The position numbers were made by a program, and so were the translations under genes. Of a stretch of DNA of 63,019 bases, positions 24,191 through 63,019 are shown in pieces (the first letter of the stretch is position 1; each line of letters begins with the position of its first letter). The notes under the pieces were generated by a model. The model was not told where the DNA came from and searched no databases. It worked only from the letters and a program-made list of their open reading frames with translations. Source of the stretch: Dimorphilus gyrociliatus (taxonomy: Eukaryota; Animalia; Annelida); contig CAJFCJ010000063.1 of assembly GCA_904063045.1 (NCBI GenBank), positions 1-63,019 on the forward strand. The letters run 5' to 3'.

Positions 24191-24683
24191 TGGATTAGGA
24201 CTTGGGGTTAGGGATTAGCACAATCAGAAGAGCCTGGCAATCCCAAAATTTCACACACACTTGTAACCAAGATTTGGCTAAGGGTTTGTGTAGCTATTGA
24301 GGAGTTGCTATCTTGAGCAGAAGTTCCCCAGCCTAAGCTGTTACTGTATCTCCAACAAAAACACAATCACAAATTCTCAACAAGGGCAAAGAGAACCTGT
24401 GCTGCAATAAATAACAATGTCACCAATTAAAATCACTCACAATATTTTGGGACTAATTGTCCCTTTATCAAGTGAGACTGAAAGGCCACAGTCTAATCGC
24501 CACCAGAGTGATTAGGGTTAGGGTTAGGGTTTGCAAAAGGTTTTTTTTGACTAAATCAAAAAAGAGAAACAGGATTCTCACACTTCAAGAGTCCCAATTG
24601 AATTTGGGAAGCAGTCAAAGAAAAAATACACCAAAATCGACATTTAAAACAATTTCCCAGAGAAAAATTGTTTCAAAAAATTT

Positions 24684-24880
24684 TGTACTTTGTTGTATTG
24701 TAATAGCAGGAATGTCTGCTTCTTTTGAACAGTATTTGTCCTTTCCAATCATTTATCAACTTACCAAAGTACTCACACCACATAGAGCCTTTCAAGTTCG
24801 TCCACAAATAGTCTTAACAAATGTAATTTAGGTAGAAATAATTCAACGAAACACCAGTATTTCGGCCAAAGAATATATAT
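24684..24880 (-). repeat. Diverged element-B-family LTR fragment (R/U5 end)
   Basis: Starts TGTACTTTGTTGTATTGTAAT like 44982 and aligns to 44982-45180 (CCTTTCCAATCATTTA, AAGTTCGTCCACAAATAGTC, ACACCAGTATTTCG). Confidence 0.85.
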
Positions 24881-25150
24881 TCTATCAGTAGTCAGTCTGT
24901 ATTGGTGTATTGTCATTCCTAGTTGTTTTTTGGCATAACAAGGAAAGAGAAAGAGAAAGATTCAAATTAATCTGTAACTGAAAATATATTCTAAGACATG
25001 TTAATTTTTTGAAATATATTTAATCAATCAGATAAATTACATTCAAAATGAATACATTTCTTGTTAATTCTTGAGATATAAATTTTTCAGGAATCAATCT
25101 ACATTGTATTATCTAAATGAATTCTATAAAATACTACTATGAATTAAGGA

Positions 25151-29989: not shown

Positions 29990-30205
29990 TACCTTGGGAA
30001 AACCTTAAAGTATTTAAACACTCACTGTTCTGGCCCAAGTGGTGGCATCTCAATTTAATTATTGAAAAAAGATCACGTGGAAACAACCACAGATAAAGTA
30101 ACCCTTCTACACTCTTCTGTTGAATTCTAATTTGGTTATTAGGCAACCTTCTATTATGAATTATCTACTGTGGTTTGATACCATTTCTTGCTTAAGTATT
30201 TTATT
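29990..30205 (+). repeat. Diverged element-A-family LTR fragment
   Basis: AAACCTTAAAGTATTTAAA, TGGAAACAACC, TTTGGT.ATT.GGCAACCT.CTATTA, CTTGCTTAAGTATT are colinear with 1981-2192. Confidence 0.7.
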
Positions 30206-30436
30206 TAAAAAAAAGCCATATAGATTAAACACTTTGTTCAAAGTAAAGGTAGTACTTTCAAGAACATAAATTATTCAAAGAAAACTGGTATAAATTGAAT
30301 ATAGTTGTTATTTATTACTCTAAGATTGATATTTAGTATTAAAATAAATATCATTAAAAAGATTATTAAGAAGACTACAACATGGCCTGTACAATTTGTA
30401 ACAAAGAAGTTGTCATGTAATGCCATGATGATAGGA

Positions 30437-31915
30437 GGTGCAGTGACATTTCGGCCCAGGACATTTTGGGTAACAACTTTAAAAGTTGCATCAATGAACC
30501 AAATTTTACAACATTCCAGTAATTCTATTTGATGATTGTGCCAAATATAATACAACGATTTTTCTTTTCTTTTATCTCTCTCAATAAGAAATCAATTTCA
30601 TCCAGATTTATTTCAAAATCTAAATGTCTTGGATGCTTTGGTCTTTTACTCTCTTTATATCTAGAAGCTTTTCTTCTTAATGATTCTAGTTCTGGCAAGT
30701 CTTCAATACTATCTTTAAATTTAAGGATAATATCTTCTGCTATTCTTTTACCAGTTTTTCCATTGACACCAGTTGCCATTTCTTTTAAGTCCATTCTTGA
30801 TTGAAGAACACTTTCTATGTTTTTATGCAATTTATGAAGATGGTTTTCATTTTTTACAATGAACTTTGATCCCTTTTGTAATATGTATGCAGGACAAGGA
30901 GCTTTGGCATATCTCTGAGTACATCTCCAGGTGATTGAACTTTCAGTTTTTCTTTTTACATAATATGAACAGTTTTTGTGTAGAAGTAAGTCTTTATATT
31001 TTGTACTTCCACCTACAACTATTTTGAAATCATCTCTTTCTGTTTCCATGATGTTATACTGCTTATCCATCTCAAATGAAGTTTCATCACTTATATCAAC
31101 TCTCTTTGCCATGTCTTGTCCATCTTCAGGAAAGTTCAACTCTTTTTCATTGTTTGGTGATTCAGGTGAATTGAAGTTAAAGGAAAGTCTTAACTGTTAA
31201 AATTTATGGTGAAATAATAATATCTTTGAACAAATGAAATTACCTGATTTGTATTCGTTTCATTTGTATTATTCATTGATGATTCTAAATTAACAACAGT
31301 TTCATCATATTCTGGATGAATTTTACTCTGATGATAATTATCTATTTTCTTTAATTTAATAAATAATTTTTGTTTGATGACATCATGACAATCAGGACAA
31401 TAATCTGCATCTTAATATATAGGTGATATAGCATTATACCTGAGAAAGTTAGAGAGTTTACTTACATTTTGAACACTTTGCATGATAAAAATGTCTGCAC
31501 AACTTGCATCTGAATTTTCTTTGTGTCCAATGAAATCTTAATCCACACTTCCAACAGTTTTTCAAATTCATGTTGTAATTTCTATTGAAGCTTCTATGAT
31601 AAATGAAGAAAAGAAATATGCTTTCTACTTTTTCTCAAAACAGGAAAAGCAAATTGTAAAACAATGTAAAATATACTTCAGAAATAAGGAAAACTGGTAT
31701 CCATTATTCTGAAAATATTTTGAATTTTATAATAATTATTTTACATATCTGGAATTACTATATTATATTACTTATTATATTTTTTATTAATTTTAAAATT
31801 GATTTGCTTTTTCTTATTAATTGTATTTAATTCATAATTAACTCAAAAAGTTATAAAATGGGCCAAAATGTCCTGGGCCGAAATGTCCAAATGTGGGCCA
31901 AAATGTCACTGCACC
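30437..31915 (-). mobile_element. Internally deleted MULE (PHD-like exon, FLYWCH, start of the MULE DDE domain)
   Basis: TIRs GGTGCAGTGACATTT(C/T)GGCCCA with GGACATTT sub-repeats; ORF 30525..31139 has TWRCTQRYAKAPCPA..HLH; the frameshifted continuation IWFIDATFKVV stops at the left TIR; no clear TSD. Confidence 0.8.
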
Positions 31916-32289
31916 ATAAGTTGCATAAAAAATAGAGTTCAAGCATGTAAAATATAATGAAAGTTGTACACTAGTATTTGGAGGGTTACCTTCCAATTGC
32001 CATGGGGATGTCATGGAAAACATTTGCAAAATTTTGCTTTTACCCTAATCCTAATCTAGACCTAGGGTTTGTCTAACCATTTTCAATAGCCATAACTCTC
32101 AGATAGTATTCTCTTAACTAAATCAAAGCAATTGCTTAATTACTTTTCCTAACCTAATCCCAATGCAAAATCTCACCCCAAAAATACACCAAACTGGCGT
32201 TTTTAACAGCCCCTGTAAAACTATATCTAGATATTTACTAATTTATCAAATTCAAGTAAGAGGGACAAAATGGAATTACTCCTGAAAGA

Positions 32290-32600
32290 TCTTTTGCATT
32301 CATGAAAGGCCTAGTTACTTGTAAAAATTAGTGTCACCAATTTTTGTGAATGTAGGATAAGTTTGTAATGTTATATCTTCTGGTTCAGCTGTTGGAGCAG
32401 AAGGTAATTCCTTTTTATCAATTGTTTAGATAACTTGGTGAATTGAACTTTTGTCCAGTTTTTTCTTCCAAAAAAAATAAATAAAATTTCCATTTCCAAT
32501 CACAAATGTTATTAGCAAAAGTAAAGATTTCTTGTCAATGATAATTATGATTGTGTTATTGACAAAGCAGCATCATCGCTTAAATCGTTTGCAAAGTAAA
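32290..32600 (-). pseudogene. env: Decayed 3' end of an element-B-like env
   Basis: Colinear with 45945-46270; encodes LPSAPTAEPE versus LPSAPTAESE in element B. Confidence 0.75.
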
Positions 32601-32710
32601 TGAGCTCCAAAAAAATCCTTTGAAAAGGACCTGAGCTGGAAGAAGCCCTAAAGACTAATTTAATTTTTGAATCCATCATTTAGCTAAGCAGATCAGTAAA
32701 TCACAAATAA

Positions 32711-33859: not shown

Positions 33860-34255
33860 TTGAAGAGTCAGCTAGAAGAAAAGAGAATATTTTCAGACTT
33901 GCTGGAATATTATGAAAATACTTGGATTTTGAATTCTACTTGGAAACCATTGAATTGGTCAATATTTGGATTATCAATAAGGACTAATAATTGTATGGAA
34001 GGATGGCACAATAGAATGAATAATAAAGTACAATCAAAAGGATCATTCTATTTGTTGATTGATGAATTGAAAAGAGAGGCTAATTTGGTTTGTATTTATC
34101 AAAAACTTCTCTCTGAGAAGAAGATTATCAAATATCAGAGAAAAAAATATGGTGATATAGAGAAGAAAATATTTGAAATCTGGGATGATTATAGGCTTGG
34201 AAGGATATTAGCTGATGAATTATTAATCCAGACTTCTTATATTTATACACCATAG
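33860..34255 (+). mobile_element. MULE transposase C-terminal fragment
   Basis: LEYYENTWI..WSIFG..RTNNCMEGWHNRMN..FYLLIDELKREA, homologous to 49406..49891. Confidence 0.8.
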
Positions 34256-34751: not shown

Positions 34752-36295
34752 ATGAAACAATTGTTAAAATTAAACTTATTTTTTCATCTATTCAATATTT
34801 TACAATCAAGACGAGATAGTAAACTTTTTTTTAAGGGACTTTATAGATGTAGAATACTTTTAATCATGTTTCTTTTTTTTTGTCTTTAGTGTGTTTCACA
34901 GAAGAGATTAAAGGTTATAAAATGACGTCTGATAATTTACATCAACTTCATACAACATTGGAAGATTGTAAATTGAAATGTATACAAAATTCAAATTGCA
35001 AGTAAGAAAAGAACAAAAACAAACATTTTTCTTTTAATTAGTCCTATAGTTTTACCTTTTCATAGATCAATTGAACACAGAAATGATCAATTATGTAATT
35101 TGAATAGTGTTGACAAGTACTCAAAACCATCAGGTTTTGTACCAGAATCATCAATGTTATACATTGGAAGGAAAAATGGAGTTTGCGGTAAGTGAAAAAA
35201 ATATATGATAAGAGATTAGAAGTGATAATAATTTTCTTCTTATCTATTCGTTAATCCAATATAGATCCGGTTGTTAATCCTGGGCAATGTTTAAAAATTA
35301 CCGATAAATTATGAGGTTCTTCGCTAACAACACAATTCAACTGCGAAGGTTTTGGCTGCTGTTTCAAAAATGGTAAATGCTATTACGACAATACATTTCT
35401 ACCAGGTTTCATTAAGATTGCTCGTTCTGCCAATATAACTTCAGCGATATTTGTATCCAGTTCAATTTCGTTGAAAGACTGTTCGAGGAAATGTTTAGAA
35501 ATTGAACAATGCAGTTGTTTTAGCTATGATTTCAGTGAAACTGTATGCGTTTTATCATCTGATCACTTAAAACCGAAATTATTGGATAATCTTGCGGATA
35601 AAGTTGTCTATCATCGACTAGCATTGAGATTACAAACTTGTTTTACTGTTAAATGCGGACCTGGAGATGAACATTCCGTCAACAGTATAAGACAATGTAA
35701 AGATTTATGCGACAATGAAGCAAATTGCGATATGATTATGTATTCACCGAATAATAGAGAGAAAATATGCTCTACTTTCACATCTACAGCGTCAAATTGC
35801 AATTACAATTCGGATACGGCTCGTGCAGTTGTTTTGTATCAGTCGTGTACAAATGGACCAATTTTTATCGATGAAAAAAGTTCAAATAGCCAAAGAATAA
35901 AGGACATTACTGATAATGGTGACACTACTCAAACGTGTACAGATATTCGAATAGATAGGATATTTTATCTGAGAATTCCTTGGCCAAATGTTGATACTAA
36001 TTTGAAAAATTTCGAAATTATAATTCGTGGGCAAAATTTACAAAAATGTATTAACATTAGAGACGGTTTAACAACTTCCGGAATATTGGCCTATATTCCA
36101 GCTGTCATTGAAATAGAACCAAATTTTCGTGGAGAATATTTAACTTGTACGCTGATTGGCGGAGATGATAATGAATTTTGTAAATATTCTTGTAATTGCG
36201 GAGACGACTATTGCCAAGCAGTTTACATTAAAGGCTTTGGTAAAACAGAAGAAAATATGAAAATATGTTCTTACAATGTAACAAATATAATTTAA
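34752..36295 (+). CDS. Secreted PAN/apple plus trefoil multi-domain gene with an in-frame TGA
   Basis: Signal-like first exon; short introns; PAN motifs (LEDCKLKCIQNSNC; LKDCSRKCLEIEQCSCFSY); trefoil-like KL*GSSLTTQFNCEGFGCCFKNGKCYY with TGA at 35312-35314 where Cys is expected. Confidence 0.6.
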
Positions 36296-37959: not shown

Positions 37960-38170
37960 TGTTAATTAGGTATTAGAGGGCAAGCCTCAAAAGTATTTAA
38001 ACCATAATTGTATCTCATCTTATCATCTGAGAAGATTGTCTGAAAACAACTTTAGCCTTCTACTCTTCAGAATTGGATGTTAAATTTTGGCATAATTTGA
38101 CAACCTTCTACTACAAACTATCTACTCTTCCTTTCAACTTTTATATTGCTGATTTCAATTAAATATTTGT
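37960..38170 (+). repeat. Diverged element-A-family LTR fragment
   Basis: CCTCAAAAGTATTTAAA, CTGAAAACAAC, TCTACTCTTCA..ATTGGA, ATAATTTGACAACC, TACAAACTATCTACTCT are colinear with 1985-2190. Confidence 0.75.
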
Positions 38171-38349
38171 GCAAAAAAGTCATTTTTGTTGTAACTGTGC
38201 AAAAATATAAATTGATCAAGTAGAAGTAGTAAATTATTTATCCTTATCATTAGGGCCAGAAAGTGTTATTCTACACAATGTGTTTCATAGGAAAAAGATA
38301 TAAAATTCTATAAATTAACAAAACATTTTGACACACCTTGTCTAAATGA

Positions 38350-38450
38350 AAGTAAGTCAACACTGCTTATCTCTATTAGTGCAATCGGCAGTGCAATACT
38401 AGTTCAATACTGCTAATCAATAATGGAACAAAGCTGACAAATGCATGGTG
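38350..38450 (-). repeat. Diverged element-B-family LTR fragment (U3 start)
   Basis: ACTGCTTATCT.TAT.AGTGC..CAATACT.GTTCAATACT..AGCTGAC.AATG matches 45815-45910. Confidence 0.7.
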
Positions 38451-38802
38451 AACTATTTATAAATGTTTAGGGTTTTACCCTAGTAAAACAATATTTCCAT
38501 GGCCATTTTCCAAACACAACCAATGTTGTGGCTATTTTTGTATTTTTCAAAAAACAATATTTATATAAAAACAGTAAAATATTCTACTCCAAAAACAGGA
38601 GGATTTTTCTTTGTTTCTCTAAAAGTATTTCAATAATTCCACCATTGTTAATTCCTATGAAATAAAAAGTCTTTGTAATGTAGATTTATATCTATAGTCT
38701 AAACATCTAAGTGCACATTTTCTCTTGTTATCTTCTCTTCCAAAAAAGACTTTTATTTATCTATCAACATTTTAGTTGTATTATATTAGAAAATGAGAAA
38801 AA

Positions 38803-44030: not shown

Positions 44031-44981
44031 TTATCCAAATCTATTCTGTATTGTGTTTGTATTTCCAAAGTTTTTTTTGGCGGTAATCCTTTTAAAAAGA
44101 TTAGTGTAAAATTTCTTGATTTTTAATCTAATAGATGATTTCGTATAACCATGAAGAAGGGCATTTATTGTTGAATTTGAAACAATAATTACTGTAAATA
44201 CTTCTGTAATAATTTGAAATTCGTATCTGGAGAAGATTTTTCTCTCTTCCACTGCATTGTACTTAGTAATTGTTAATGTAGCTGGTAAAGCCCATAATAA
44301 ACAATTGATTATTAATAAGCATGCTAAAATTCGGATGCTACTCCCTTCAGATTTTATATTATTAGCGTTCGATACATCAGAAATTGCTTTTCTCTGTTTT
44401 CTTATCGCTCTTAATATAGGAATATACAATAAGAAACTGGTAAAAGCATTAGGTAAAACAGTAGAGAATGACCAAAAAAACATGTACGTAAAAGGAAAAA
44501 CATTGTGAGTTTCACATTGAAAAGTTATATTATGCTGCAAAATATATTCATATCTATTCCAGCCAATTGCAGTTGGAAGTAGACAAATGGTAAAATTGAT
44601 TAACCATATGCAAGAAAGCAATATAAAAGCTTTCTTAATTGTCCAAATTTTGTAAAATGATAAAGGTTTTACAACAGCCAAAAACTTTTCAAATGTAATT
44701 AGAGTTAATGTAAATGATGATACTGCAACTATCATAAAAATAATTTCATATGCTAAAAGACATTTATAATAGCTTAGGTCTTTACTATGAAATAGAATAA
44801 AAATGAATATACTTATTGAATATAAAATATCTGTAAAGGTTAGTGCTGTAACACCAAAATTATGTAATTTCCATAAATCTTTATTAATAATATGAATAAT
44901 GATTAAATTAAAATTTAAAATTAAACCTGCAAATTGGTTGCAGCTTGATATAACTGTTAAATAAATGTTGTCGAACACCAT
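44031..44981 (-). CDS. Rhodopsin-family GPCR, probably N-terminally truncated, abutting the element B 3' LTR
   Basis: Seven hydrophobic segments; LTFTD (TM2), ITFEKFLAVVKPL (DRY position), IGWN, Cys in ECL2, NSTINALLHG (NPxxY position). Confidence 0.85.
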   Translation of the reverse strand: MVFDNIYLTVISSCNQFAGLILNFNLIIIHIINKDLWKLHNFGVTALTFTDILYSISIFIFILFHSKDLSYYKCLLAYEIIFMIVAVSSFTLTLITFEKFLAVVKPLSFYKIWTIKKAFILLSCIWLINFTICLLPTAIGWNRYEYILQHNITFQCETHNVFPFTYMFFWSFSTVLPNAFTSFLLYIPILRAIRKQRKAISDVSNANNIKSEGSSIRILACLLIINCLLWALPATLTITKYNAVEERKIFSRYEFQIITEVFTVIIVSNSTINALLHGYTKSSIRLKIKKFYTNLFKRITAKKNFGNTNTIQNRFG

Positions 44982-45916
44982 TGTACTTTGTTGTATTGTA
45001 ATTGTAGGAATTTCTGGTTCGTCACAACTGTAATCGTCCTTTCCAATCATTTACCAACTTGCCAAAGTACTGGTCCAAATAGAACCTTTAAAGTTCGTCC
45101 ACAAATAGTCTAACAAAGGCAATTTCGGTAGAAATTGATTAACAAAACACCAGTATTTCGTCCAAAGAATATGTATTGAGTAAAATGAGCTTCTAGTTCT
45201 AAACAAGCTAGTTTAAACAACTAGCTGACGGTTAGAAAACTGAACTATCAACTGTTAATTTCGTAGGGTTTATATACTCTTTTAAGGGTTGATAGTTCAC
45301 AAATTTCAATGTTCACAAAAACAAAAGTAACATTTGAAGACAAAGAAAAGTTCTAAATATGGTCATGTTTTTATTGTTTTCCTCTTCTAAATAATAGTTG
45401 AATTTCGAAGGTTGGAGAGTTGCATAAGATGTAACAATTTTAGTAGGACAAGTCCAACAATCAAGAAAACATGTAGATTGTATATTTGACCATTTTTATA
45501 TTCTACCTTAATAATGATATTCAATTGATTGAGTTAGTAAATTTAGCATCAGCATATAAGGAGGAAGTATATCTGATTAATGCATGTTAAAAAGAACAGT
45601 ATTGTGTATACAATACTGTTGAATAGTGAATATAATCTAACCTTAGAATTTAAGCATAATTGATAATTAATTGAACTAGTTTTAGTTCGAAATCATAAAT
45701 TTATGGATTAATAAATTGTAATATTAATGCTAGGTTGCAAATAGCAAATATTCTTTATATAATTCAATAGGTTTTATTACTGCATAATGTGTATGCACTG
45801 CCCTATGCGAAACTAGGTCACTACTGCTTATCTTTATCAGTGCTATCTGCATAGTACAATACTGGTTCAATACTACTTCTCTATTGTAGAATATAGCTGA
45901 CGAATGTATGTGTACA
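44982..45916 (-). repeat. Element B 3' LTR (935 bp)
   Basis: Matches 55472-56406 with two substitutions found by eye; TATATAAA on the minus strand near 45270-45277. Confidence 0.97.
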
Positions 45917-45920
45917 AACA

Positions 45921-45932
45921 TCCCACTCCTTT
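45921..45932 (-). promoter_or_regulatory. Element B polypurine tract
   Basis: AAAGGAGTGGGA on the minus strand, overlapping the env stop, 4 nt before the 3' LTR. Confidence 0.75.
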
Positions 45933-48360
45933 AAGACCTTGCTTCCACGAAAGGTCTAGGACTTGTGACAATTATGTTATCACCACTTTTTCTGAACATA
46001 GGATAATTTTGCAGTTCTATTTCTTCTGATTCAGCTGTTGGAGCTGAAGGTAATCTTTTTGTTTTTGTCAGTAGTTTAGACAGTCTGGTAAATTGAACTC
46101 TTTTCAGTTTTTTCTTCCAAATAAAGTAGATGAAGAATCCAATTCCAATCAAGAGTATAATTGGCAGAAGTGTGTCTATTAGTATTTTGAAAGGTTTTCT
46201 TATCCATGAAGAAAATAGATGTTGTGTTGGTGACAAGGCTGCATCAATTCCTAAATCATTTGCAAAGTTAATATGCTCTCTATGCTTAGTCAAAGTATCC
46301 TGTATGTATTCCAAAACTTGTTGTATCTGATAATGTTTCTTGCCCACATCTTCTTTTATACCTAGTTGTAATAATTCTGTGAGTCTGACAACTTCTAGTT
46401 TTGGTTCTTCAATTTGACTGTTGATTTTCATTCTGATTGATTGTGCTGCTGCTGTTTGGAACCTGCATCCTTTCCTTGTATAATAGATAAATGTCTTCTT
46501 GCCAGAATGTATGGCATATTGATTTTGTTCTGCATCCAAAGGATTTTTCTTGATCTTGAAGAGATGCTGAGTTTGGTCACATGTACCATATCTTATGTCT
46601 TCTTTTGTGATGTGGTAAGCATGATGAAGTATTGGATCAATTGAGAATAGGAGATCTTTATATTTGATCAGAAATTCTTTTGAACATAATCCATTTTTTG
46701 TTATAATTGTTGTGTCACAAACTACTTGAACAGTTTTTAATTCTGTACATGTATTGAGGGTTGTTAGATCTCCTAACCATGTACTATGGGTTCCATGTTT
46801 AGATCCAAGTATTGTTTGTAGTTGAGGTGATAGTGGTGTAAGTAGGGCTATCATCTTGTTTCTCATGATAAATTCTTTGCATAAAAGTTGTGAAACTTGT
46901 TTAAAAACTGTTTGTAAATTTTGAAAATTTTTGTCAATATTGTTTAGTAGTGCAGCTGTTCTTATAGCATCTTTTATATTTATTTGGTGGGATTCTGGAA
47001 TCTCTATGTTTTCTAATTGTTTCCTCTTCCATTTGTGATTTATTGGTTTTCTTTGTAAAAGTGTATATTTGCCATTTTCTGTATGAATTTGAAATTGTGT
47101 ATCTTTTGGGCTTTGATACCAAATGTTCATGTTTGGGAGTGGGTTGAAAGTAACTGGTTTTTTGTCCAATTCAAAATCTTGTGATCTTACTGGTCTGGCA
47201 GGTTTTAGCTTTGTTGTTTTCAGCATTTTTAGTATGTATTTGTTGTGAATATCCCAGATGTCTGGAGAAATAATTTCTTTGACAAACCAAGTCCTCACTA
47301 ATGGTGTTGCATGATTTTTTATCAGCATATGGTAGGTTTTGTCACCATCTCTATACCAATCATTATATGTTAAAATATCTTGTATTTCTGTGACATTGGC
47401 CTTTCTTAGTGATGATTTCTTTCCAATATATTTCTCCAATCTATTAACTTCTTTATTTGAAATGATCTTGTATTTTGTATCCTCTATTATTTTATTGTCA
47501 GCATAATTAGAATTTGTAAGATCAGTTCTAAGTAAGTCATATTCTTTCTGGGGTACCAATACTCTGGTACCAGGACCACCATATCCTTTGATATATCTGT
47601 CTTGGTAAGGTAAATCCATTATTGCATAGTTGGGGCAGGAAAAATATCCTCCAAGTTTTACACATTCCACATTATGGGAAACTATTTTCCATGGTGAAAC
47701 ATGGCCTAGAAGACTTTGGCCTTTTTCTGGATTAAATATAATGATTGAATCCAAAGTTCTACAAAATTTTTGTTTAATAGAACAGTCTTCTAAATATTCC
47801 AAATTTGTGGTTATTTTATCTTGACTTGGATTCCAATAAGCCTTGCCAATTTGAAGGATTGTTGTAAATTCTTCCACCACTGTGGTTCTTGGCCATTTGT
47901 AATTTGGTCCTTTGTTTTCATTATACATAAGAAGTTTGCCTTTTTCAATTAGGTTTTGTCCATTTAAGGTTTTGTGTGTGTATAGCATTGTTCTGCATTG
48001 TTTTTCACTTAAGGCAAGTGTTTGTTTTTCAATTCTGTGTTTCTTTGCTCCAAAAAAGTAATGAGTGTAGAAATTGATTCTTCTTTTCACTAAACACTTG
48101 ACAGCTTGAATTGCCAAATTGTCAGCTTTAATTTCATAGATGTTAGCTACAATTTTGATCATTTGTTTAGTTTCAAAGGTACATACTGGTTCATCTGCTA
48201 AATCAAATGATTGGTGTACTTGTTGTCCTTGACAAAACTGTACTGATGGTAGCATTCTTACAGTTATGTTTGCTTTTGTTATGGATACATTTGCTTGGAC
48301 CAAGTTTAAACAGCATATTGCTAACAGTGTATAAATTATTGATCCTCTGATAGGAAGCAT
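45931..48360 (-). CDS. env: Element B envelope glycoprotein
   Basis: Signal-like MLPIRGSIIYTLLAICCLNLVQA; shares ANIT..FC..Q.FDLADEP.C, YFFGAKK, TNLEYLEDC, PYQD..I.G.GGPGT.VLVP with element A env; TM LLPIILLIGIGFFIYFIW. Confidence 0.9.
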   Translation of the reverse strand: MLPIRGSIIYTLLAICCLNLVQANVSITKANITVRMLPSVQFCQGQQVHQSFDLADEPVCTFETKQMIKIVANIYEIKADNLAIQAVKCLVKRRINFYTHYFFGAKKHRIEKQTLALSEKQCRTMLYTHKTLNGQNLIEKGKLLMYNENKGPNYKWPRTTVVEEFTTILQIGKAYWNPSQDKITTNLEYLEDCSIKQKFCRTLDSIIIFNPEKGQSLLGHVSPWKIVSHNVECVKLGGYFSCPNYAIMDLPYQDRYIKGYGGPGTRVLVPQKEYDLLRTDLTNSNYADNKIIEDTKYKIISNKEVNRLEKYIGKKSSLRKANVTEIQDILTYNDWYRDGDKTYHMLIKNHATPLVRTWFVKEIISPDIWDIHNKYILKMLKTTKLKPARPVRSQDFELDKKPVTFNPLPNMNIWYQSPKDTQFQIHTENGKYTLLQRKPINHKWKRKQLENIEIPESHQINIKDAIRTAALLNNIDKNFQNLQTVFKQVSQLLCKEFIMRNKMIALLTPLSPQLQTILGSKHGTHSTWLGDLTTLNTCTELKTVQVVCDTTIITKNGLCSKEFLIKYKDLLFSIDPILHHAYHITKEDIRYGTCDQTQHLFKIKKNPLDAEQNQYAIHSGKKTFIYYTRKGCRFQTAAAQSIRMKINSQIEEPKLEVVRLTELLQLGIKEDVGKKHYQIQQVLEYIQDTLTKHREHINFANDLGIDAALSPTQHLFSSWIRKPFKILIDTLLPIILLIGIGFFIYFIWKKKLKRVQFTRLSKLLTKTKRLPSAPTAESEEIELQNYPMFRKSGDNIIVTSPRPFVEARS

Positions 48361-48383
48361 TCCACCATTTGTTTGGTGTTTCC

Positions 48384-50199
48384 GAATTATGGAGAAAACG
48401 TCCACTGGAGAAAACGTCCACTGATTGGAGAAAACGTCCACTGGTCGGAGAAAACGTCCACTGGAGAAAACGTCCACTATGTGAAGAATATATTAAAAAA
48501 TACTTTTTCAAATTTAAATTTTTATTATTGATTTTGAGATATATCCAATACATTCCCATAATGCAATCACTTTTGGTAGCCATTTTGAAATCCAGACAGG
48601 AAACAGTTCTGGGATCTTCTATGTTTTTCATGGAAAGTGAATATTGTGCATATTTCATCTACAATTTTTCAGAATTTTTTGCAGTTTGAAATATATTTCA
48701 CTATTGAAAACCATCAGACAAAACACAAACTTTAGAATTGATATCAGTAAGTTATAGAATATTGTGTTGAAATGATTTATTTATAAATTAGCTTTATTTT
48801 TATAGCAGCCATTTTGTTTATCATTATTGTTAATTGTTTAATTTTTAAATTTACACAGTTGGTTATTGATAGAGATTCCAAATTGAACATGGCACCAATT
48901 TGTTACATTTGTGAAGAGAGAATATATGGAAGACAAAATCAAGAGAAATGTCAGCTTTGCTGTCATTTATTTAAAATACATAAAAAATGTTTGGATTATA
49001 AAGGTTTGTTTAAGTTTTTTGTCACTATCCTTCCTTACAAATATGTTTTTATATTTTTTCACAGATCAATGGCTTTTGCTTTTATGGGATCTAAGAGAAA
49101 GACAGCCTACAAGAAATTATTTAAGGTACAATAATTTTGCATTTTAAATTGAATAATCTAATTTGTTAAATTAACAGGCAATACAAGATTTAACAAATGG
49201 GCATAGCCCCAAAAAAGTTGTTGTAGACTTTGAAAAAGCTATTTGGAAAGCACTATCATTCACTTATCCTGAAGCAAACATTAAAGGGTGTGTTTTTCAC
49301 TGGACACAGGCAATATACAGAAAGATTCAAGTAATACTTTAATTTAGTATTTGAGGTCTAGATTTGAACTGACATATTTATTTCCAGGAATTAGGATTAT
49401 GTAAGATGTACAAGGAGAAAAAAGCTGAATATAGAATCATGAAGAAATTAATGGCATTACCATTCCTGCCCTCTGATCTGATAGAACCAACATTTAAGAC
49501 TATTAAAGAAATAAGTCCTATTGAAATGAAGTCTCTATTGGAGTACATTGAGACACAATGGATAAATGGATTTTATAAACCAGAGGTATGGTCTGTTTAT
49601 GGTGAGGCTATAAGGACAAAAAATGATCTTGAAGGATGGCATCACAGGCTTAACAAGAATCTTTGCTCTAACACTGCATTCTATTTGCTTTTAGATGAAC
49701 TGAAAAGAGAAGCTGATCTGATAAAGCTATATAAAAAATTACTGAGTGAAAAGAAAATTTGTAGACAGCAAAGAAAAGCATATCAGAATATTCAGAGCAA
49801 AATATTCAGCTTATGGGAACAATTTGAAATTGCCTCAATTACCTCCCTGGACTTACTTGATAAACCTTCTGACATTTATTCACCAGTTTAAAATACCTTT
49901 ATTCTTTAATGTTGTTACACTGTTGTCAATCATTCTTGTTATAATGCTTGTTTTTACTTAATCAATATATTAATATTTAAATATTTGTAATTCTTATTAT
50001 TCATTTTTTCCTGTCAAATTGCTCTAAAAACTCCATCTATCAAATATCTTATATCTTACTTTGAAGTTTTATAGTGGACGTTTTCTCCAGTGGACGTTTT
50101 CTCCAAGCAGTGGACGTTTTCTCCAAACAGTGGACGTTTTCTCCAGTGGACGTTTTCTCCAGTGGACGTTTTCTCCAGTGGACGTTTTCTCCTGTACCC
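48384..50199 (+). mobile_element. Internally deleted MULE with tandem-repeat TIRs, inserted at the pol/env junction of element B
   Basis: Perfect 9-bp TSD GGTGTTTCC (48375-48383, 50200-50208); 5 left and 7 right copies of the 16-mer AGTGGACGTTTTCTCC in inverted orientation; PHD-like exon (CYICEE..CQLC..HKKC) and MULE C-terminus (VVDFEKA, GCVFHW, ALPFLP, DLEGWHHRLN). Confidence 0.93.
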
Positions 50200-53100
50200 G
50201 GTGTTTCCTTACTGTCACTGTGTTAACTGTTATAGGTTGTTTGTTAGCTAGTCTTAGTCTACTAGCATGATAGAATTTTCTTTTATCTGCCAATATTTGT
50301 AATTCATACAAACATTTTGTAGTATCTGTAGCAGTTACAAGATATGGTCCACTCCATTTGCTTGTATTTATTCTGTTCATTCCTTGACCAATGTTTTCAT
50401 TTCTTATGTGTACCCAATCACCAATTTTGTAAGTTGGAGGTTTTCTTGTAATAGCTTTATTAACTCTATCTCTATATTCCTTCTTTTTTAGAACAGATTT
50501 GCAAAGTGCTGTTGCTCTAATTTCTTCAAGTTCATGTTTTCTATCAAATAAGAATTTTGTTGTTGGTTCTAATCTTGGAACTTCCATTAACAGGTCTAAA
50601 ACATTTCTATTCTTCAATCCAAATAATATTTCATGTGGGGTTTTGCCAGTGCTTCCAACTGGAATTTGATTTAAACATGTCTGAATTAATGGTAACTGTC
50701 TTGTCCAATCTGTTAATTGTTCCATAACTACATGTTTATGTAGTGCTCTACGAATTTCCAAATTCTTTCTTTCTACCATTCCATTACTTTGGCTATGGAA
50801 TGCTGTTGTTTTAATTTTTCGTATTCCCATTGATGTCACCATTTCTGTAAAGATTTCCCCAAGAAAATTCCTTCCTTGATCTGTGAGAATTTCTTCTGGG
50901 ATACCAAATATTGGGAAATAGTTGAAAAACAAATGTTTAGAAATTTCCTCAGCTGTTTGAGTTTTTAGAGGGAATATGTTGGTAAATCTGGACATGTGGT
51001 CTATAATGACAAGTATATACTTGTAAGAATCATGTCCAGTCAGAGGTCCCATTATGTCCATAGCTATTCTTTGCATTGGTAAAGTTGGGTGAGGTGTTTC
51101 AACCAACAGATGTTTGTTGCCTGGTGCTCTTAATTGCTCACAAAATTCACAACTCTTTATGTGATCTTTAATTGTTTTCTTTAGCTTTGGGTGCCAGAAA
51201 GCTTGCTCCAAAGTGTGAATTGTTATGTCTACACCATAGTGCTCAAATAGTTGATGTTGATGAATTTGTCCAAGTAAGTTGGTTAGAGTTGATAGTGGAA
51301 TTACAAGTAGTGGTTGACAGCCATTTAGATACCATACAAGGTCTTCTTTTACAAACATAGATTCAATAAAGTTTCCATATTCATTCAAAGACCCATTATC
51401 AATGTTTTCTCCTTCCAATTTGTCTACAACTTTCATTAGTGGAGTATCTAATACTTGTTCTCTATAGAAGTTTATTTCAACTGGTGTGATTTTTAGTTTC
51501 ATAATCTGGGCTTGGATTTCAGTTATGTCTTCATCATAATCATTGTCTAGATTGTCATCTAAACAATCATCTAATTCTTCTAAGTCCTCTGTATCAATAT
51601 AAAAGCATTTAAGCATATCCTTTCTTTCTGCTAATTGGGGAACTGTATTGCCATTTTGTTTTTCTTCATTTAATCTTTCCTTAAGTAAATTACGAAAATC
51701 AATTACTTCATCAGTTTCACCAATTCTTGATATCCAGTCTGCTCTATTAGTTCTTCCTGGTATGTATATTATTTCAAAATCCATATCCATAAGTGCCATC
51801 ACCCATTTAACAGTACTTGTATTCAGTTTGTTTTGTACAAATGTTTGTACCAAATTTTGGTGATCAGTGTAGAGAAAAAATTTCTTATACTGTAGATAAT
51901 GGGAGAATTTTTGTACTGCCCAATATACTGCAAAAGCCTCTTTTTGATAAGCTGCATATCTTAGTTGTGTATTGATTAGGAGCTTGGAAGCAAAAGAAAT
52001 TGGTTTTCTTATTTTCTTTCCATCTTCTTCCCATTCTTGTTCTAGAACTGCACCAACTGCATAATTAGAAGCATCTGTTGTTAAATAGAATGATTTAGTA
52101 AAGTCTGGCAGTTGAAGGATTGGGGGCTCTGTCATTGCATTCCTTAGTGTTTCATAAGCTTCCTCTGCTTTTTTTGTCCATTTCAGTTTTTCTGTCTTTT
52201 GGTGTACTTTTAATAATTCTCTCAAAGGTTTTGTGATTTTTGCAAAATCTTTAACAAATCTTCTATAATAACCACAAAATGCCACAAAACTCAACAGAGT
52301 ATTTGCAAACATAGGTAATTTGGCATCTTTTATTTTTTGAATCTTTTCAGGATCAGTTTCAATACCATTCTGTGTAATTCTATGACCAAGGAATTGAACT
52401 GATTCTTGTAAGAATGCACATTTGCTCAGTTTAATTCTGAAGTCTTTTTCCTTGATTCTTTCCATAAGTTTCTGTAGAGCTACAAAGTGTTCTTCCAATG
52501 TTTTGGTAAAAACTATAATATCATCCATATAATTAATGCAGAAGTTTTCCAATCCATTAATAACAAAATTTGCCATGATATAGCTGAAGTGTGAAGGTGC
52601 ATTTGCCAAACCAAATGGCATGCGGTTGAATTCAAATAAACCAAATGGTGTAATAAAAGCAGTTTTCTCCTTATCTTCTTCTTTAATTGGAATATGATGA
52701 AATGCACTTGTTAAATCCAATATAGAAAAATATTTGTGGCCTCCTCCAAGCTTATCAAATAAATCTTCCTGATGTGGGATTGGATAACAATTCTTTTTTG
52801 ATTGCTTGTTAAGTTTTCTGTAATCCACACACATTCTTAATGTTCCTTCTTTCTTTTTCACAAAAACAATGGGTGAAGCCCATTGGCTTTTGCTTGCTCT
52901 AATTAGACCATTTTCCAATAATCCATTTAATTGATCCCTGCATTCCTGCTGTTTGTTGGGTGGCAATCTGTATGGTCTTTGTTTGAAAGGCTTTATATCT
53001 TCCAATAATTCAATTGCCATTGGTGGAACATCTGGTGAACCAATGTCATTCTGATTTGTAGCAATAATATCTTCATAATTCTTTATCATTTCTTTTAATT

Positions 53101-54337
53101 CTTCTCTGTTCTTGTCAAGATTATTTTTGGACACATGTAAATAATTGTCAATTTCTAGTGTATTTGAATTAATATTGTGTACATTTTGATTAGACAAATG
53201 TTCAAATTCAATACTTTCCAACTGTAATTCTTCTATTTCAGGAGTAACTGGATTTTTCTTTTGTTCTTTTTGCACTTTGATAGTTATTCCATCTTCTAAT
53301 TCTATGTATTGTGGTTTCATTTCCATTTCCATAGCCAAGTCTTCAGTTTCTTCTTCAGAGGAATTTATGAGAATAACTGAGTCATTGTCAGACTTAGGTA
53401 TATTTCCAGTCTCTTCATCAGATGAGTCTATAACCATTATGGAATCATTGTCAGACTCAATTGTGTTACTGGTCTCTTCTTCAGATGAGTCTATAACAAT
53501 CATTGAATCATTATCAGGCTCAGTTATGTTATCAAGCTCTTCCTCAGATGAGTCTATAACAATCATTGAACCATGATCAGAATCAGTTGAATCACTAATT
53601 TCATCTTCAGATGAGCTTGTACCATTGATTATATCCAAATCTGAGTCTGGGCTGTGATCTGATTCAATACTTGTTTCTGTATCATAATTTTCAGAAGTAC
53701 TGGAACTTTCATCTGTGCCATAATTGCTATTTGAATCAAAACCATTGAATCCCTCATAAACTATGCTTGAACCATGAGTGTTGCTTGTATCATAGCCAGT
53801 ATCTGGATCAGTAACTTCCATTTCTGAGTCCACACTATCTGAAACTTCAGATGGAGTATCAAAAACTTCAGATGGAGTGTCAGAATCTTCAAAATACTGT
53901 CCCATCATTCCAACAGTTACTTTTTTTACACTGCCTTGTTTTCCAAATTTTGTTTGGTGATTTTCGTTATATTGCAAAAACTTTCTAACTGGTTGTCCTT
54001 TTCTGATAAAGAATGGAAGAGAAACTTGTTTTGTTGCAAAATCAATAAGAGCTCCAGCATTTTCTAAGAAATCACAACCAAGTATTATAGCCATATCTAG
54101 TTTTTCCATAATAAAGAATTCTTGTTCCATAATTCTTCCATTAAATTGAATATTCAGTTTTGTTTTTCCTTTTGTCTTTAAAGCATTTCCCTCTGCTGAA
54201 GTGATGATTGGTAAGCCAGTAGTTTCTTTCTTGATGAATTTAGAATCCATTAACCTGATTTCTTTTTCTGTAATAAATGACAAAAGTGCTCCTGAATCAC
54301 ATAAAGCAATAACCTCTCTTCCATTATGATTTTTCAT
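50200..54337 (-). CDS. pol: Element B Pol (PR, acidic spacer, RT, RNase H, integrase)
   Basis: LCDSGAL..AIILGCDFL; D/E/S-rich tract; YMDD; LTTDASN; DIMGP, TDQG, GMVERKN; KWSGPY. The last codons of the listed ORF are MULE TIR sequence. Confidence 0.93.
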
Positions 54338-55468
54338 TCAAAATTGGAAATCTTTTCTGCCTTTTACCAAAGAAGTACACTTAAAATGTGCGATTTTCTC
54401 TTCTTTGAGATTAAATATTGCCATTCTTCCTTTAGAAATTTCAGTTTCATTAGGTTCATCAGGTCCAACATGTATTAGTCTGTTAAAGCTGCCTTTTTCA
54501 TTATTTCCTGCATTTCCATTTCTTTGTTGTTGAAATCTATTTTGAGAAAAAGGTTTAAATGTATGTTCATTTTGATTTGAGTTACTCTGATTGTTGTCAA
54601 ATCTCCTTTTGTACTGTTTGAATTCATTTTCGCTTTCTTTTCTTGCATTATCAAAAAATATTTCTGCTCTTTTTGCCAATTTAATATACTGATTAACTGA
54701 GTTAATCTTTCCATCTTTTTCCACATGATTAACAATTTTTCCTTTAAGACCATTCCTGAATACAGTTAACAGTTGAAGTTCTCTAACTCTTTCAGTAACA
54801 CAAGCCATTTCAGTAGTATTGAATGGTAGGAATTTTTCCACAAGTTCTTTACTTCTTCTAACAAAACTTTGGACAGTTTCATCATTGAACTGTCTCAATC
54901 TATCAATTTCTTTTTTGTAAGCCATAGGATCTGGATTAAATTCTTCATCCAATGCATCCCAAATTTCATTTTCATTTGCCATGGAGGGTAAACTTTCAAT
55001 AACATCTCTGGCTCTTCCAGTAGTGTATTTTCTCAGCATTCGAACTCTTTTCTCTTCTGTATCCCAAAGGTTTAATTCACAAGCTGTTTGAAAGTTCCTC
55101 TTAAAGGCCCAAGTATCTTTGCTACCAGAATAGGGTCTCAGCAAAGTAGTATTAGGTTTCTCATTAGCATCAATTAGAAGACTTGCAATTGTCTTTTCCA
55201 AAGCATTATCTTGAATGCCATCATAACTGAATTTTGGTTGAGTAGGATCAGGATTAACCATACCTTCAGGAATTGTAGCTGCCCCAGTCATCAAATGGTA
55301 CTTTAAAAAGCTATTACCATCAACTTTGGCTCCACTACTTTTAATTCTCAACATTAATTCATTAATTTTTGAAAGATACTCATCTACTTCCTTGGCTCTG
55401 GCTTTGTCATTCTCATAAACCAAAATAACATTCATTGAAGTAGCATTGTGGGCTGTCGACTGCGCCAT
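54338..55468 (-). CDS. gag: Element B Gag (no CCHC knuckle), separated from pol only by an in-frame TGA
   Basis: PYSGSKDTWAFKRNF..W..LRKYTTGRARDVI..L+EEF.P..L.Q..DETVQSFV, a Gag capsid-like pattern also seen in element A. Confidence 0.88.
   Translation of the reverse strand: MAQSTAHNATSMNVILVYENDKARAKEVDEYLSKINELMLRIKSSGAKVDGNSFLKYHLMTGAATIPEGMVNPDPTQPKFSYDGIQDNALEKTIASLLIDANEKPNTTLLRPYSGSKDTWAFKRNFQTACELNLWDTEEKRVRMLRKYTTGRARDVIESLPSMANENEIWDALDEEFNPDPMAYKKEIDRLRQFNDETVQSFVRRSKELVEKFLPFNTTEMACVTERVRELQLLTVFRNGLKGKIVNHVEKDGKINSVNQYIKLAKRAEIFFDNARKESENEFKQYKRRFDNNQSNSNQNEHTFKPFSQNRFQQQRNGNAGNNEKGSFNRLIHVGPDEPNETEISKGRMAIFNLKEEKIAHFKCTSLVKGRKDFQF
55453..55467 (-). promoter_or_regulatory. Element B primer-binding site (tRNA-Ser type)
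   Basis: TGGCGCAGTCGACAG, identical over 15 nt to the element A PBS, starting 5 nt inside the 5' LTR. Confidence 0.85.
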
Positions 55469-55471
55469 ATT

Positions 55472-56406
55472 TGTACTTTGTTGTATTGTAATTGTAGGAA
55501 TTTCTGGTTCGTCACAACTGTAATCGTCCTTTCCAATCATTTACCAACTTGCCAAAGTACTGGTCCAAATAGAACCTTTAAAGTTTGTCCACAAATAGTC
55601 TAACAAAGGCAATTTCGGTAGAAATTGATTAACAAAACACCAGTATTTCGTCCAAAGAATATGTATTGAGTAAAATGAGCTTCTAGTTCTAAACAAGCTA
55701 GTTTAAACAACTAGCTGACGGTTAGAAAACTGAACTATCAACTGTTAATTTCGTAGGGTTTATATACTCTTTTAAGGGTTGATAGTTCACAAATTTCAAT
55801 GTTCACAAAAACAAAAGTAACATTTGAAGACAAAGAAAAGTTCTAAATATGGTCATGTTTTTATTGTTTTCCTCTTCTAAATAATAGTTGAATTTCGAAG
55901 GTTGGAGAGTTGCATAAGATGTAACAATTTTAGTAGGACAAGTCCAACAATCAAGAAAACATGTAGATTGTATATTTGACCGTTTTTATATTCTACCTTA
56001 ATAATGATATTCAATTGATTGAGTTAGTAAATTTAGCATCAGCATATAAGGAGGAAGTATATCTGATTAATGCATGTTAAAAAGAACAGTATTGTGTATA
56101 CAATACTGTTGAATAGTGAATATAATCTAACCTTAGAATTTAAGCATAATTGATAATTAATTGAACTAGTTTTAGTTCGAAATCATAAATTTATGGATTA
56201 ATAAATTGTAATATTAATGCTAGGTTGCAAATAGCAAATATTCTTTATATAATTCAATAGGTTTTATTACTGCATAATGTGTATGCACTGCCCTATGCGA
56301 AACTAGGTCACTACTGCTTATCTTTATCAGTGCTATCTGCATAGTACAATACTGGTTCAATACTACTTCTCTATTGTAGAATATAGCTGACGAATGTATG
56401 TGTACA
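55472..56406 (-). repeat. Element B 5' LTR (935 bp)
   Basis: Direct repeat of 44982-45916, followed by the PBS on the minus strand. Confidence 0.97.
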
Positions 56407-59177: not shown

Positions 59178-60848
59178 TATAAAGTGGACGACAGGTATGT
59201 TGGAACACCTCAAATTTTTATAGGCCAAATATTAAAAATCTTTTTTGTGATGAAAGAGATTATTTTTTTTATTTTTTTAGTGTTTAATAATAGGTTCAAC
59301 TTGCAATTTTATATAAATTTCTGTAAAACAAACAGCAGTTGGGTACATTTTTACATATTTTTTTTTTATAGAAATTACCATAGTTTTCTGATTTTTTTTT
59401 CTTATTTGGCAGTGGGACATGTTTATTGGAACAATGTTCAATAGTTAAATTTTTGGTCTACTTTTGTATGTGCCCACCCTCTCTTTCTATACATTTGCTT
59501 ATTCTACTGCCCATTCCCCCATATAAGCCTGGCAACAAGAGTGGATTTCTGTTGATAACCTCATAGGAGCATTTCATAATCTTTTCCCACAGTTCATCCT
59601 CTGTCTCGAACTGTGGACTATCATAGACCATTGTCTTGGTCAGATGCCACATGTTCTCTATTGGACTTAGATCAGGGCTCCTTGCTGGCCAATCTATGGG
59701 CTTGATATTATTGCTTTTAAAGGCCCTTTTTGTTTTTCTTGCAGTGTGACAGCCAGCATTGTCTTGCTGGAAGATGTACTGCCTGCCCATTTTTGCCTCA
59801 ATTTCTTCTATGACAGGCAGAACATCTTCTACAATGAAGGAGCTATAGTTTTCAGCATTCAGCTTGCTCCTTATCCTCCAGACTTCAAATATGCCATCAG
59901 AGATTATCAACCCCCACACCAATACTCCACCTCTCCCCATATTTTTTGTGACCCTGAAGTCCTTTTCGCTGTTACTGGTCCAAGTCCTAAAATTGTTAGG
60001 TCCACTTAGCGAAAACCTAGCCTCATCAGTAAAAATAACCCTAGACCAGTCTAGATTTTCGCTAATAACTTTGAGGCAGTATGCTTTTCTGTGTTTACAG
60101 TCTTTGGAGGTGAGATCAGTTCTTTGTCTGACTCTTTTATATTTGAAATTTTGTCTTTTCAGCTCCCTCTGTATTGTTCTTATGCTTACATCTACTTCTA
60201 ATTCTTTTCATATCTTTGCTGCTGTCACTCTTTGCTTGTTATCTTTAAATTTCTTTAAAATTCTTTTCATCCTCACAATCTCTCTGTCGGAAAGCTTCTT
60301 TGGACCTCCCCTATTTTCTTGTTCTGGCTTCTTATACTTTAGTATGTACCTAATTGATGATGGTGCCATTCCTAAAACTCTTGCTGTTGCCCTTAATTTG
60401 CCTATTTCACTATATTTCTTGATTACCAAATCCCTTATATCTTGACTCCAAACCATAATTAATAAAATACAATATAAATTATGTGCAGTAATTTTTAATA
60501 TTCAATAACTAATTAACTTAACTTAAAACAGGAAAAAAGTTGAAAAATTTTTTGTTTGAGAAATCTATTTTAATATCAAACCAGATGTCAACTCAATGTT
60601 CCAATAAACATATTGAGCTGCCAAATAAAGAAAAAACTTATGAAAATTATTAAAAATTTTTGCTAATAATCTTCACAAAATATTATCATTTTCTTAAATT
60701 TTTTTCAATATTATGTCAATTTAACTCTTTTTCAATATAAATTCAGACAAAAAATACTAATTTGCAGAGGACAAACAATTTTAACATTAATTAAAAATTG
60801 GCCTATCAAAATTTATGGTGTCCATATATACATGTTGTCCACTTTATA
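59178..60848 (-). mobile_element. Tc1 (DD34E) transposon with long IR/DR-type inverted repeats
   Basis: Inverted ends TA-TAAAGTGGAC(G/A)ACA; inner inverted blocks TTATTTGGCAG..ATGTTTATTGGAACA (~59400 and ~60600); TA flanks. Confidence 0.88.
59458..60456 (-). pseudogene. Tc1 transposase with a single in-frame TGA (60208-60210)
   Basis: HTH N-terminus, RGGPKKL linker, VIFTDE, FQQDNAGCH, WPARSPDLSPIE with 34 residues between D and E; reading through the TGA keeps frame with ORF 59458..59940. Confidence 0.9.
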
Positions 60849-61341: not shown

Positions 61342-63019
61342 TCATTCTTTATGTCTCTTTTCATTAGACAACTCTTTCTCTGTTCTATCATTATCTTCTT
61401 GTGGAAGAATACACTGGTTTTTAACTGCCTTATTTAAATTTTTACTTTCACTTTCAATACTATCATTTTCGAAATTTATGACATTCCTATCTGATAGAAC
61501 TTTTACATCATCATTCAGGTTAGAATCGAATGGAATACTTTCGGAATCCTGCTTAGAAGCTAGCAAATATTTGCAACCAGGCACATTCATATCAATTTTC
61601 GAAATTAATTGATTAAATTCATCGCCTTCCCATAGTTTATTATCTTTCCTCCTGTGAAAACCTATGTATAACAGTTGTGCAAATACCATTGACATTGGTC
61701 CCTCTGGAGGCCATTTCATATCATCTAATAATAATGGTATAATTGGTTTATTTAATGCTCCCGATAATGAAACTTCTCTTCGACAATTAGCACTTAAAGC
61801 ATGTTTTGGTGTGACACAGGAAATAACAACTCTACAACCTCTGATTCCTTTATCAATTTTATCAAATAGTGAATCTCCACCACCCATTTGCATTATGTCC
61901 AGCCAACAATGATATCCCAATCCACTCAACTTCTTGTATAGGCATCTGATTTGAGGTTGTTTATCCCATTGATAAGAGATGAAAACATTGGGACTTCTCA
62001 CTTCTTCGTCCTCACTTTTAGCATTCAATGTTTTGGATTCTACAGCCTTTTGCTCTCTCTTTGGTATTATTATTTCTTCTTCAGGTGGATTCATCCATCC
62101 TGCATATGGAGAATCTTTAGCTGTCAATTTCATATCAGGAACAACATAGTATCGAATTTGCATCAGTAGTTCTTGAAATTTAGGAGGCATCCAAAACACT
62201 TTATCACCTTTTTGCATGCCTCCATTTTTGAAGAATTGAATGTATAGATATTCAGACATAATTGGACCCATCAGACCAGCAGGCGGCCATTGTAGTTTTT
62301 CCATAAGTAAAGGAATCATTGGTTTACCAAGATTAGTTGTTAAATTTACTTCTCTGCAACAATTTGCTGATTTTGAGTATTTCTCACTTACACAGCTAAT
62401 GATTACTTTAGCTGATCTTACGCCATCATTAATTTTTGAATATAGTTTATCACCTCCACCCATTTGACCAATGTCCATCCAGCCTTTAAAGCCGGCCATC
62501 TCTAGGTGTTTCTTTAACATTTTAACTTCTTGTTGATGTCCCTATTGATAGCTGAGAAATATTTCAGGTTTTTTGAATTCTTCTTCTTCATCTTTAACAA
62601 CATTTTTTACAGAAGCTAAAGCGTTTTCTACAATTTCTGCTGCATTGAGTCTGTTCATTTCTTTTAAATTATTTAAAATGGCAAAAGTAGCTTCTCTTGT
62701 TTTGTGTGTAGCGAACCATTCGTCCAACATCGATAGACAAGGATCTGGTTGAGTAGCCCAATGTCGAATATCATCATTAGAATAGTTCAATTTCATAGAG
62801 AGAAGTCTCCAATCATTATCAGATTGATCATTCATTAATTCTGAAACATGACGAGACCATGCTGGAGCGTGTGATAGAGTCATATGATTTAATAGTTCAA
62901 CTCTTTCGTCAAGTCCTTTGATTGTATATTCAATTTGATCAATGCGTTTCTTTGTTTCCTTTACATCTTGTTTTACATCAGCAACATCTTTCTTTGTTTC
63001 TTTATCATCGGTATCGAGG
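61342..63019 (-). CDS. Coiled-coil, Death domain, tandem TIR (TIR_2-like) protein C-terminus with an in-frame TAG; extends past the right edge
   Basis: DWRLLSMKLNY..MLDEW (Death); two FxSYQ(W)..WxDIxQMGGGDxL..IxxGxR..SxNCxREV..KPxIPLL..WPP repeats; TAG at 62542-62544 aligns with Trp of the second TIR. Confidence 0.85.

Follow-up and report, generated by a model that had tools for sequence, protein, structure and literature searches.

Element B, a retroelement on the reverse strand of a 63,019-nucleotide stretch of Dimorphilus gyrociliatus DNA (contig CAJFCJ010000063.1, analysed at its full length and referred to as the window), probably made its envelope protein (Env) at the C-terminal end of a polyprotein, Pol-Env or Gag-Pol-Env. 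B is a Ty3/gypsy long terminal repeat (LTR) element with a gB-like envelope. The copy is young but has since been interrupted, its env frame being split at present from pol by a nested Mutator-like element (MULE). That the Pol-Env frame was continuous before the MULE arrived is well supported by the sequence. For comparison we used a related element in the same window, element A (1670-10983, forward strand), which carries a further protease (protease 2) and an acidic spacer between integrase and Env.

The nested element measures 1816 nt (48384-50199) and lies between two identical 9-bp target-site duplications (48375-48383 and 50200-50208). Of the characters of a Mutator-like transposon it shows the long inverted ends, with arrays of 16-nt repeats and arms that are 97% complementary, the 9-bp target duplication and, by language-model features only, a MULE transposase. 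The residual frame (49373-49891, forward strand) has a feature score of 0.95 to clusters in which 11-14% of the members carry Pfam MULE, while a Pfam search of this remnant gave no match. The initial annotation of this DNA had described a MULE with a target duplication splitting B, and this was confirmed. To test the register across the insertion, each B segment was translated separately in its own frame. The two flanking segments comprise 4138 nt (1379 whole codons) and 2441 nt (813), with stops in neither, and, modulo 3, the insertion together with one target copy accounts for the shift in phase from pol to env. The arithmetic given earlier, namely two segments in register without a stop and 2570 codons in total from the ATG at 55468, was thus right. 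The remaining two frames downstream of the insertion run for 12 and 56 codons before they close. Between the conserved end of integrase and the Env methionine there are only 19 codons, and a post hoc estimate puts the chance of such a linker being open and in frame at ~0.07. All three junctions that follow integrase (integrase-Env in B, integrase-protease 2 and spacer-Env in A) are open and keep the frame; the joint chance of this is ~0.001, again a post hoc figure and one for junctions that are not fully independent.

The 5' LTR of B (55471-56406; 936 nt, TG...CA) differs from the 3' LTR (44981-45916) by 2 substitutions and 0 gaps (99.8% identity). The primer-binding site (55456-55467) is an identical 12 nt in element A, and a polypurine tract was read from the sequence at 45920-45932. 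The gag frame (54341-55468) encodes a capsid-like domain (Pfam Retrotrans_gag, E 2.8e-5); no zinc knuckle was seen in it, and the final ~35 codons of the frame share homology with the beginning of A protease 2. An in-frame TGA (54338-54340) is followed by the core of the sole protease of B (53981-54337; DSG motif, Pfam RVP and RVP_2 above cut-off), an acidic spacer homologous to that of A (53258-53890, with a 63-nt tandem repeat at 53349-53615), reverse transcriptase (YMDD) and RNase H (51785-52861; Pfam RVT_1 and RT_RNaseH), and an integrase with zinc-binding, core and C-terminal domains (50243-51295; Pfam Integrase_H2C2 and rve) whose C-terminus is similar in A and B. The env frame (45931-48374) has 5 codons, then a methionine at 48360, a signal-peptide-like stretch, a cysteine-bearing ectodomain, a transmembrane helix at about 46111-46194 and a short tail. 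From stop to stop, the frames of B run from 55540 to 54338, from 54337 to 50069 and from 48492 to 45931. The Pfam domains follow the Ty3/gypsy (Metaviridae) order of Gag, protease, reverse transcriptase, RNase H, then integrase, and the paired LTRs with TG...CA ends, the primer-binding site and the polypurine tract of that family are all present. Against the sequences in PDB, B Pol has Ty3 Gag-Pol as its best match (E 9e-99), the next non-Ty3 entry being at 2.5e-39. Because the ATG at 55468 lies partly within the primer-binding site and lacks a counterpart at the corresponding position of A, it is perhaps not the true start of B. Next to B, a rhodopsin-family G-protein-coupled receptor frame (44031-44980, reverse strand) opens with an ATG directly past the 3' LTR, which could have replaced, or could now drive, the promoter of this frame.

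The TGA of B had been described as the only stop, separating gag from pol. It is indeed single, but it sits within the start of the protease rather than between domains: it lies 13 codons ahead of the catalytic Asp, and position 12 of the RVP profile aligns with residue 5 past the stop, which places the TGA inside the protease N-terminus. Both of its sides align without gaps to an A frame that is open at that site. The simplest reading, to which we give somewhat better than even weight, is a nonsense lesion of this single copy. Little decay is expected in B because its LTRs differ at only 2 of 936 sites, yet the chance of at least one nonsense change since insertion, estimated from LTR divergence, is still ~0.36. 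Otherwise the TGA may be a readthrough site, which would set Env at the level of Pol. In an endogenous retrovirus of Xenopus, pol is described as following gag in the same frame beyond a TGA (PMC8278194). No stable RNA structure was found downstream of the B TGA (z +0.5 to +1.4 versus shuffles).

A Pfam search of B Env gave no match. Its sequence shows a short hydrophobic leader and, towards the C-terminus, a transmembrane stretch, with 16 cysteines in all, and its language-model features score 0.94 to clusters of rhabdovirus/Monjiviricetes fusion glycoproteins. A structure model built from a 12-row alignment, with a second B-like copy (P0013) left out, has a mean predicted local distance difference test score (pLDDT) of 53 and is confident only over approximately residues 70-270, the N-terminal third. 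Its best PDB match in a Foldseek search was herpesvirus gB (E 3e-8), with low template-modelling (TM) scores of 0.13-0.29; against a viral structure library it matched gB or rhabdovirus-like G proteins, again with low TM-scores. As modelled, B Env thus resembles class III fusogens of the gB type, in agreement with the gB-type call made for A in a published errantivirus survey. The features of HSV/gB-type errantivirus Envs are all seen in B, namely a leader, an ectodomain that is class III-like and a transmembrane helix at the C-terminal end.

Element A has LTRs at 1670-2299 and 10349-10983 and a 4-bp target duplication. Its frame 1 (2216-6976) encodes Gag, protease 1, reverse transcriptase, RNase H, integrase and the N-terminal part of protease 2. 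Frame 2 (6910-10317) holds the protease 2 core (DTG), an acidic spacer with a 51-nt repeat (7554-7670), and Env with its methionine at 7897. As assembled, A env is therefore out of frame with pol, and the initial annotation, which placed env in the pol frame for A as well as B, is not borne out for A. The last part of frame 1 together with the first part of frame 2 aligns to the single protease of B, with a one-base gap near 6955, just ahead of the catalytic motif. We consider this offset likely to be an assembly error, because the gap resembles other one-base faults nearby and because no slippery heptamer occurs in the frame overlap: at each of the five indels between the A LTRs the 5' copy is one base short, in a short run, the two LTRs differing otherwise by one substitution only, and a sacsin-like gene changes frame near 13685 and 17203 with no visible intron. 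That the internal 8 kb of A contain a single break, this very offset, counts against an assembly error. A programmed -1 frameshift in A was considered and rejected, the overlap having no slippery site. The sacsin-like gene is a host gene (10940-19800, reverse strand) with three SACS domains, and its last frame enters the 3' LTR of A. Taken together, A likely uses the same Pol-Env strategy as B, with a protease-spacer module added between integrase and Env. The idea that a pol-env frame is a lineage trait keeps the continuous frame of B in its favour; it extends to two elements only, and A joins it only if its offset is an error.

The position of this module differs between the two elements. 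In B it lies before reverse transcriptase, whereas in A it forms a second protease, located after integrase and ahead of Env. The B protease is 67% identical to A protease 2 and 35% identical to A protease 1. Homology of the A and B modules spans the acidic spacer and stops at the same motif, beyond which B continues with reverse transcriptase and A with Env. The spacers have been enlarged by differing tandem units, 63 nt in B and 51 nt in A. The second B-like copy, P0013, is a spliced gene model that confirms the order spacer, reverse transcriptase, integrase and env, with the spacer directly preceding reverse transcriptase, and skips the integrase-env junction. Between A protease 2 and the B protease, nonsynonymous and synonymous distances (dN and dS) over 101 codons are 0.23 and 0.70 (dN/dS near 0.33), which indicates that A protease 2 is under purifying selection and kept as a protein. 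By simple pairwise counts on AT-rich DNA, the synonymous distance is 0.70 in the protease core and 1.6-1.7 in Env, while reverse transcriptase and RNase H, like integrase, are saturated; because of this difference between the protease core and the three Pol domains, the module was likely exchanged after the Pol genes of A and B had split. In A the module upstream of Env spans ~1.1 kb and is open throughout; its openness and the purifying selection on it can be understood only if module and Env are translated together. An integrase-tail relic at the end of B Gag, which would have oriented the move of the module, was rejected, since 745 of 2000 shuffles scored equally. The single-sequence fold of A protease 2 (pLDDT 46) was too poor for use, and a PDB sequence search with it gave only weak ASPRV1 matches (E about 0.05).

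How would Env be made and released from such a frame? In the route we favour, a ribosome translating Pol on the genomic RNA would run on into Env, where the hydrophobic leader would act as an internal signal sequence and host signal peptidase would free the Env ectodomain in the endoplasmic reticulum. The leader would keep the cytosolic Gag-Pol part tethered until cleavage of the short integrase-Env linker by the protease of the element itself. Retroviral-type proteases act as dimers, and a co-translational self-cut is therefore unlikely. The initial annotation had proposed that Env is made at polyprotein stoichiometry and released by the protease, or by an undetected splice. The first part survives in that ribosomes which read Pol would reach Env, with the qualification that the level would follow Pol, not Gag, if the TGA is genuine. 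As to the second, the protease would not be the sole agent: host signal peptidase is the likelier release step, because in both elements Env opens with a methionine followed by a signal-peptide-like stretch. A Ty3-like cleavage motif, chosen post hoc, occurs in the B integrase-Env linker and on the N-terminal side of reverse transcriptase in A and B, as well as in 3 other places, and was not counted.

Several observations weigh against a Pol-Env polyprotein. In both A and B, the Env leader is directly preceded by a methionine with a purine at -3, which is what independent initiation of Env would predict. A distance of 33 nt separates the break of A from that of B, within one and the same protease, and the chance of two random lesions falling so close is ~0.01. 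B has no target-site duplication, as the flanks at 44981 and 56406 do not match, unlike those of A; this may be a property of the single copy, in the form of a recombinant of two insertions, a loss of flank, or a misassembly or assembly chimera. An insertion-free copy did not come to light, and all three locus scans found no relative: of the pattern matches, 0 of 14 were confirmed in viral contigs and 0 of 453 and 0 of 116 in metagenomes. Word-index protein searches, a method of low sensitivity, gave 0 matches at E<=0.001 for Env in longer proteins, for A frame 2 and for the B protease region, and found no protein of 1494-4265 aa containing B Env. A profile search with Env returned 11 relatives, two of them carrying Dimorphilus gyrociliatus names, and all were fragments or free-standing. 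The distant relatives P0009 and P0014, on contigs of 8.8 kb and 2.2 kb, are called free-standing with a leader of their own, and for this reason the Pol-Env fusion may be a narrow trait. Lastly, Cer1 of C. elegans, a Ty3/gypsy element, is described as having one 2272-aa frame that passes integrase into an open reading frame at the env position, as in B, but the product there is no fusogen and is translated from spliced mRNA (PMC10309623).

A number of these points fit an alternative in which the frame is continuous and working Env nevertheless comes mainly from a spliced or internally promoted RNA starting at the methionine before the leader, the long fusion being a tolerated by-product. We regard this as a serious though clearly less probable account. 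It draws on the methionine and purine preserved in both env genes, on Cer1, whose in-frame 3' protein is made from a spliced mRNA (PMC10309623), and on the Tor elements, for which an env RNA from an LTR or internal promoter is described (PMC4402516). Upstream of the Env methionine we found no strong splice acceptor, only weak candidates, for example at 50262 in B and 7747 in A with 8 of 12 pyrimidines each, and a separate env RNA would leave unexplained both the three in-frame junctions and the open, selected protease module ahead of Env in A. The polyprotein and separate-RNA routes can coexist. Less probable still, and in our judgement unlikely, is a recoding site in the protease module, at which B would read through its TGA and A would shift frame at the homologous spot, so that the upstream protein would be abundant and the downstream one, with Env in it, less common. 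The MULE aside, there is exactly one break per element, both in the same protease hairpin, the Xenopus element offers a precedent for gag-pol across a TGA (PMC8278194), and the copy number of the A family is given as 7 at >98% identity (PMC13524379). However, the A overlap has no slippery heptamer, A frame 1 matches B up to the gap and so leaves no room for an upstream slip, no stable structure lies 3' of the B TGA and the best z near the A break is -1.7, and the A gap is like other one-base shortfalls in the contig. Finally, although the chance for B alone is ~0.07, B ends without a target duplication and distant relatives look free-standing, it is very improbable that the B register arose by chance or is an artefact, the copy being chimeric or mutated, in a family that normally has a separate env frame, given the perfect 9-bp duplication at the insertion, the near-identical LTRs and the continuity of A at its own junctions. 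We therefore retain the polyprotein as the favoured origin of B Env.

In errantiviruses of the Drosophila gypsy type, env is a separate frame expressed from spliced RNA; no such separate frame is seen in B. The errantivirus survey mentioned above (Chary and Hayashi, 2026; PMC13524379) lists one row for Dimorphilus gyrociliatus, Annelida_Polychaeta_Dgyr_errantivirus_1, a Ty3/gypsy element with an HSV/gB-type Env and 7 copies, whose listed LTR and primer-binding site coordinates coincide with element A; B is absent from the list. B has the same primer-binding site as A, with 62% identity in reverse transcriptase and 37-45% in Env. By the definition of an intact copy in that survey, uninterrupted gag, pol and env, B is not intact, owing to the MULE insertion and the in-frame TGA. 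The survey labels the A element GAG-POL and an outlier with a chromodomain (PMC13524379). We found no chromodomain in the post-integrase tail of A by Pfam or PDB sequence search, whereas the published call used HHpred; because this tail is partly homologous to the start of the B protease, the chromodomain call may in part reflect the start of the second protease. In the main text of the survey 'protease' appears once and 'polyprotein' and 'frameshift' are absent, and the parts covered here hold no discussion of fusogen expression or pol-env fusion (PMC13524379). Its supplement labels four elements GAG-POL-ENV (Saqu_1, Bcal_1, Pmet_4, Dcar_3) and one POL-ENV (Llat_2). The labels of these five Ty3/gypsy elements, from which alone the arrangement is known, imply an env fused to pol, and Bcal_1 and Pmet_4 have gB-type Envs, like B; for none of the elements so labelled do these parts of the survey mention a protease module before Env, unlike in A (PMC13524379). 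Atlas virus of hookworm is reported to have one uninterrupted Gag-Pol-Env frame of 2828 residues, similar in length to that of B, and nine such elements are described among hookworm belpaoviruses (PMC9094657). It belongs to the Belpaoviridae, with YVDN and a class II phlebovirus-like Env, whereas B has YMDD, a Ty3-like Pol and a class III-like Env and so shows neither of those Belpaoviridae features. Literature searches that left most subscription papers outside their scope found no paper on Gag-Pol-Env in a single open reading frame with these terms combined, and none on a second or duplicated protease in gypsy retrotransposons. A single Gag-Pol-Env frame is a known strategy, apparently also among errantiviruses, of which B is a new member; what is new here is the shuffling of the protease module, along with an element, A, that has two proteases.

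Elsewhere in the window, decayed A-like or B-like LTR relics and a relic of an env C-terminus, 71-93% identical, occur at 24682-24881, 31916-31973, 32278-32607, 38056-38464 and 30131-30243, pointing to a locus hit repeatedly by the A/B group. A FLYWCH-domain frame (30525-31196, reverse strand) and a relic of the nested transposase (33977-34173, 66% identical) suggest older MULE insertions nearby. At 59178-60848, two inverted-arm pairs (58 and 57 nt) enclose ~1.6 kb, possibly another DNA transposon. Host frames encode two TIR domains (61342-62541, reverse strand) and a PAN domain (35315-36295, forward strand).

More speculatively, the lineage might run its whole genome as one polyprotein with the protease-spacer block as a movable module, and protease 2 of A might be active and dedicated to Env release, as in the polyproteins of RNA viruses. 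We hold this wider view to be possible rather than probable. If true, two functional aspartic proteases would be at work in one LTR retroelement. Element A, a member of a multicopy family, is a natural example of a two-protease design. In non-insect Ty3/gypsy elements that carry env, fusogen expression from a Pol-Env frame with an internal leader is a testable route, and such a frame could also explain how a Gag without an evident matrix domain arrives at the membrane.

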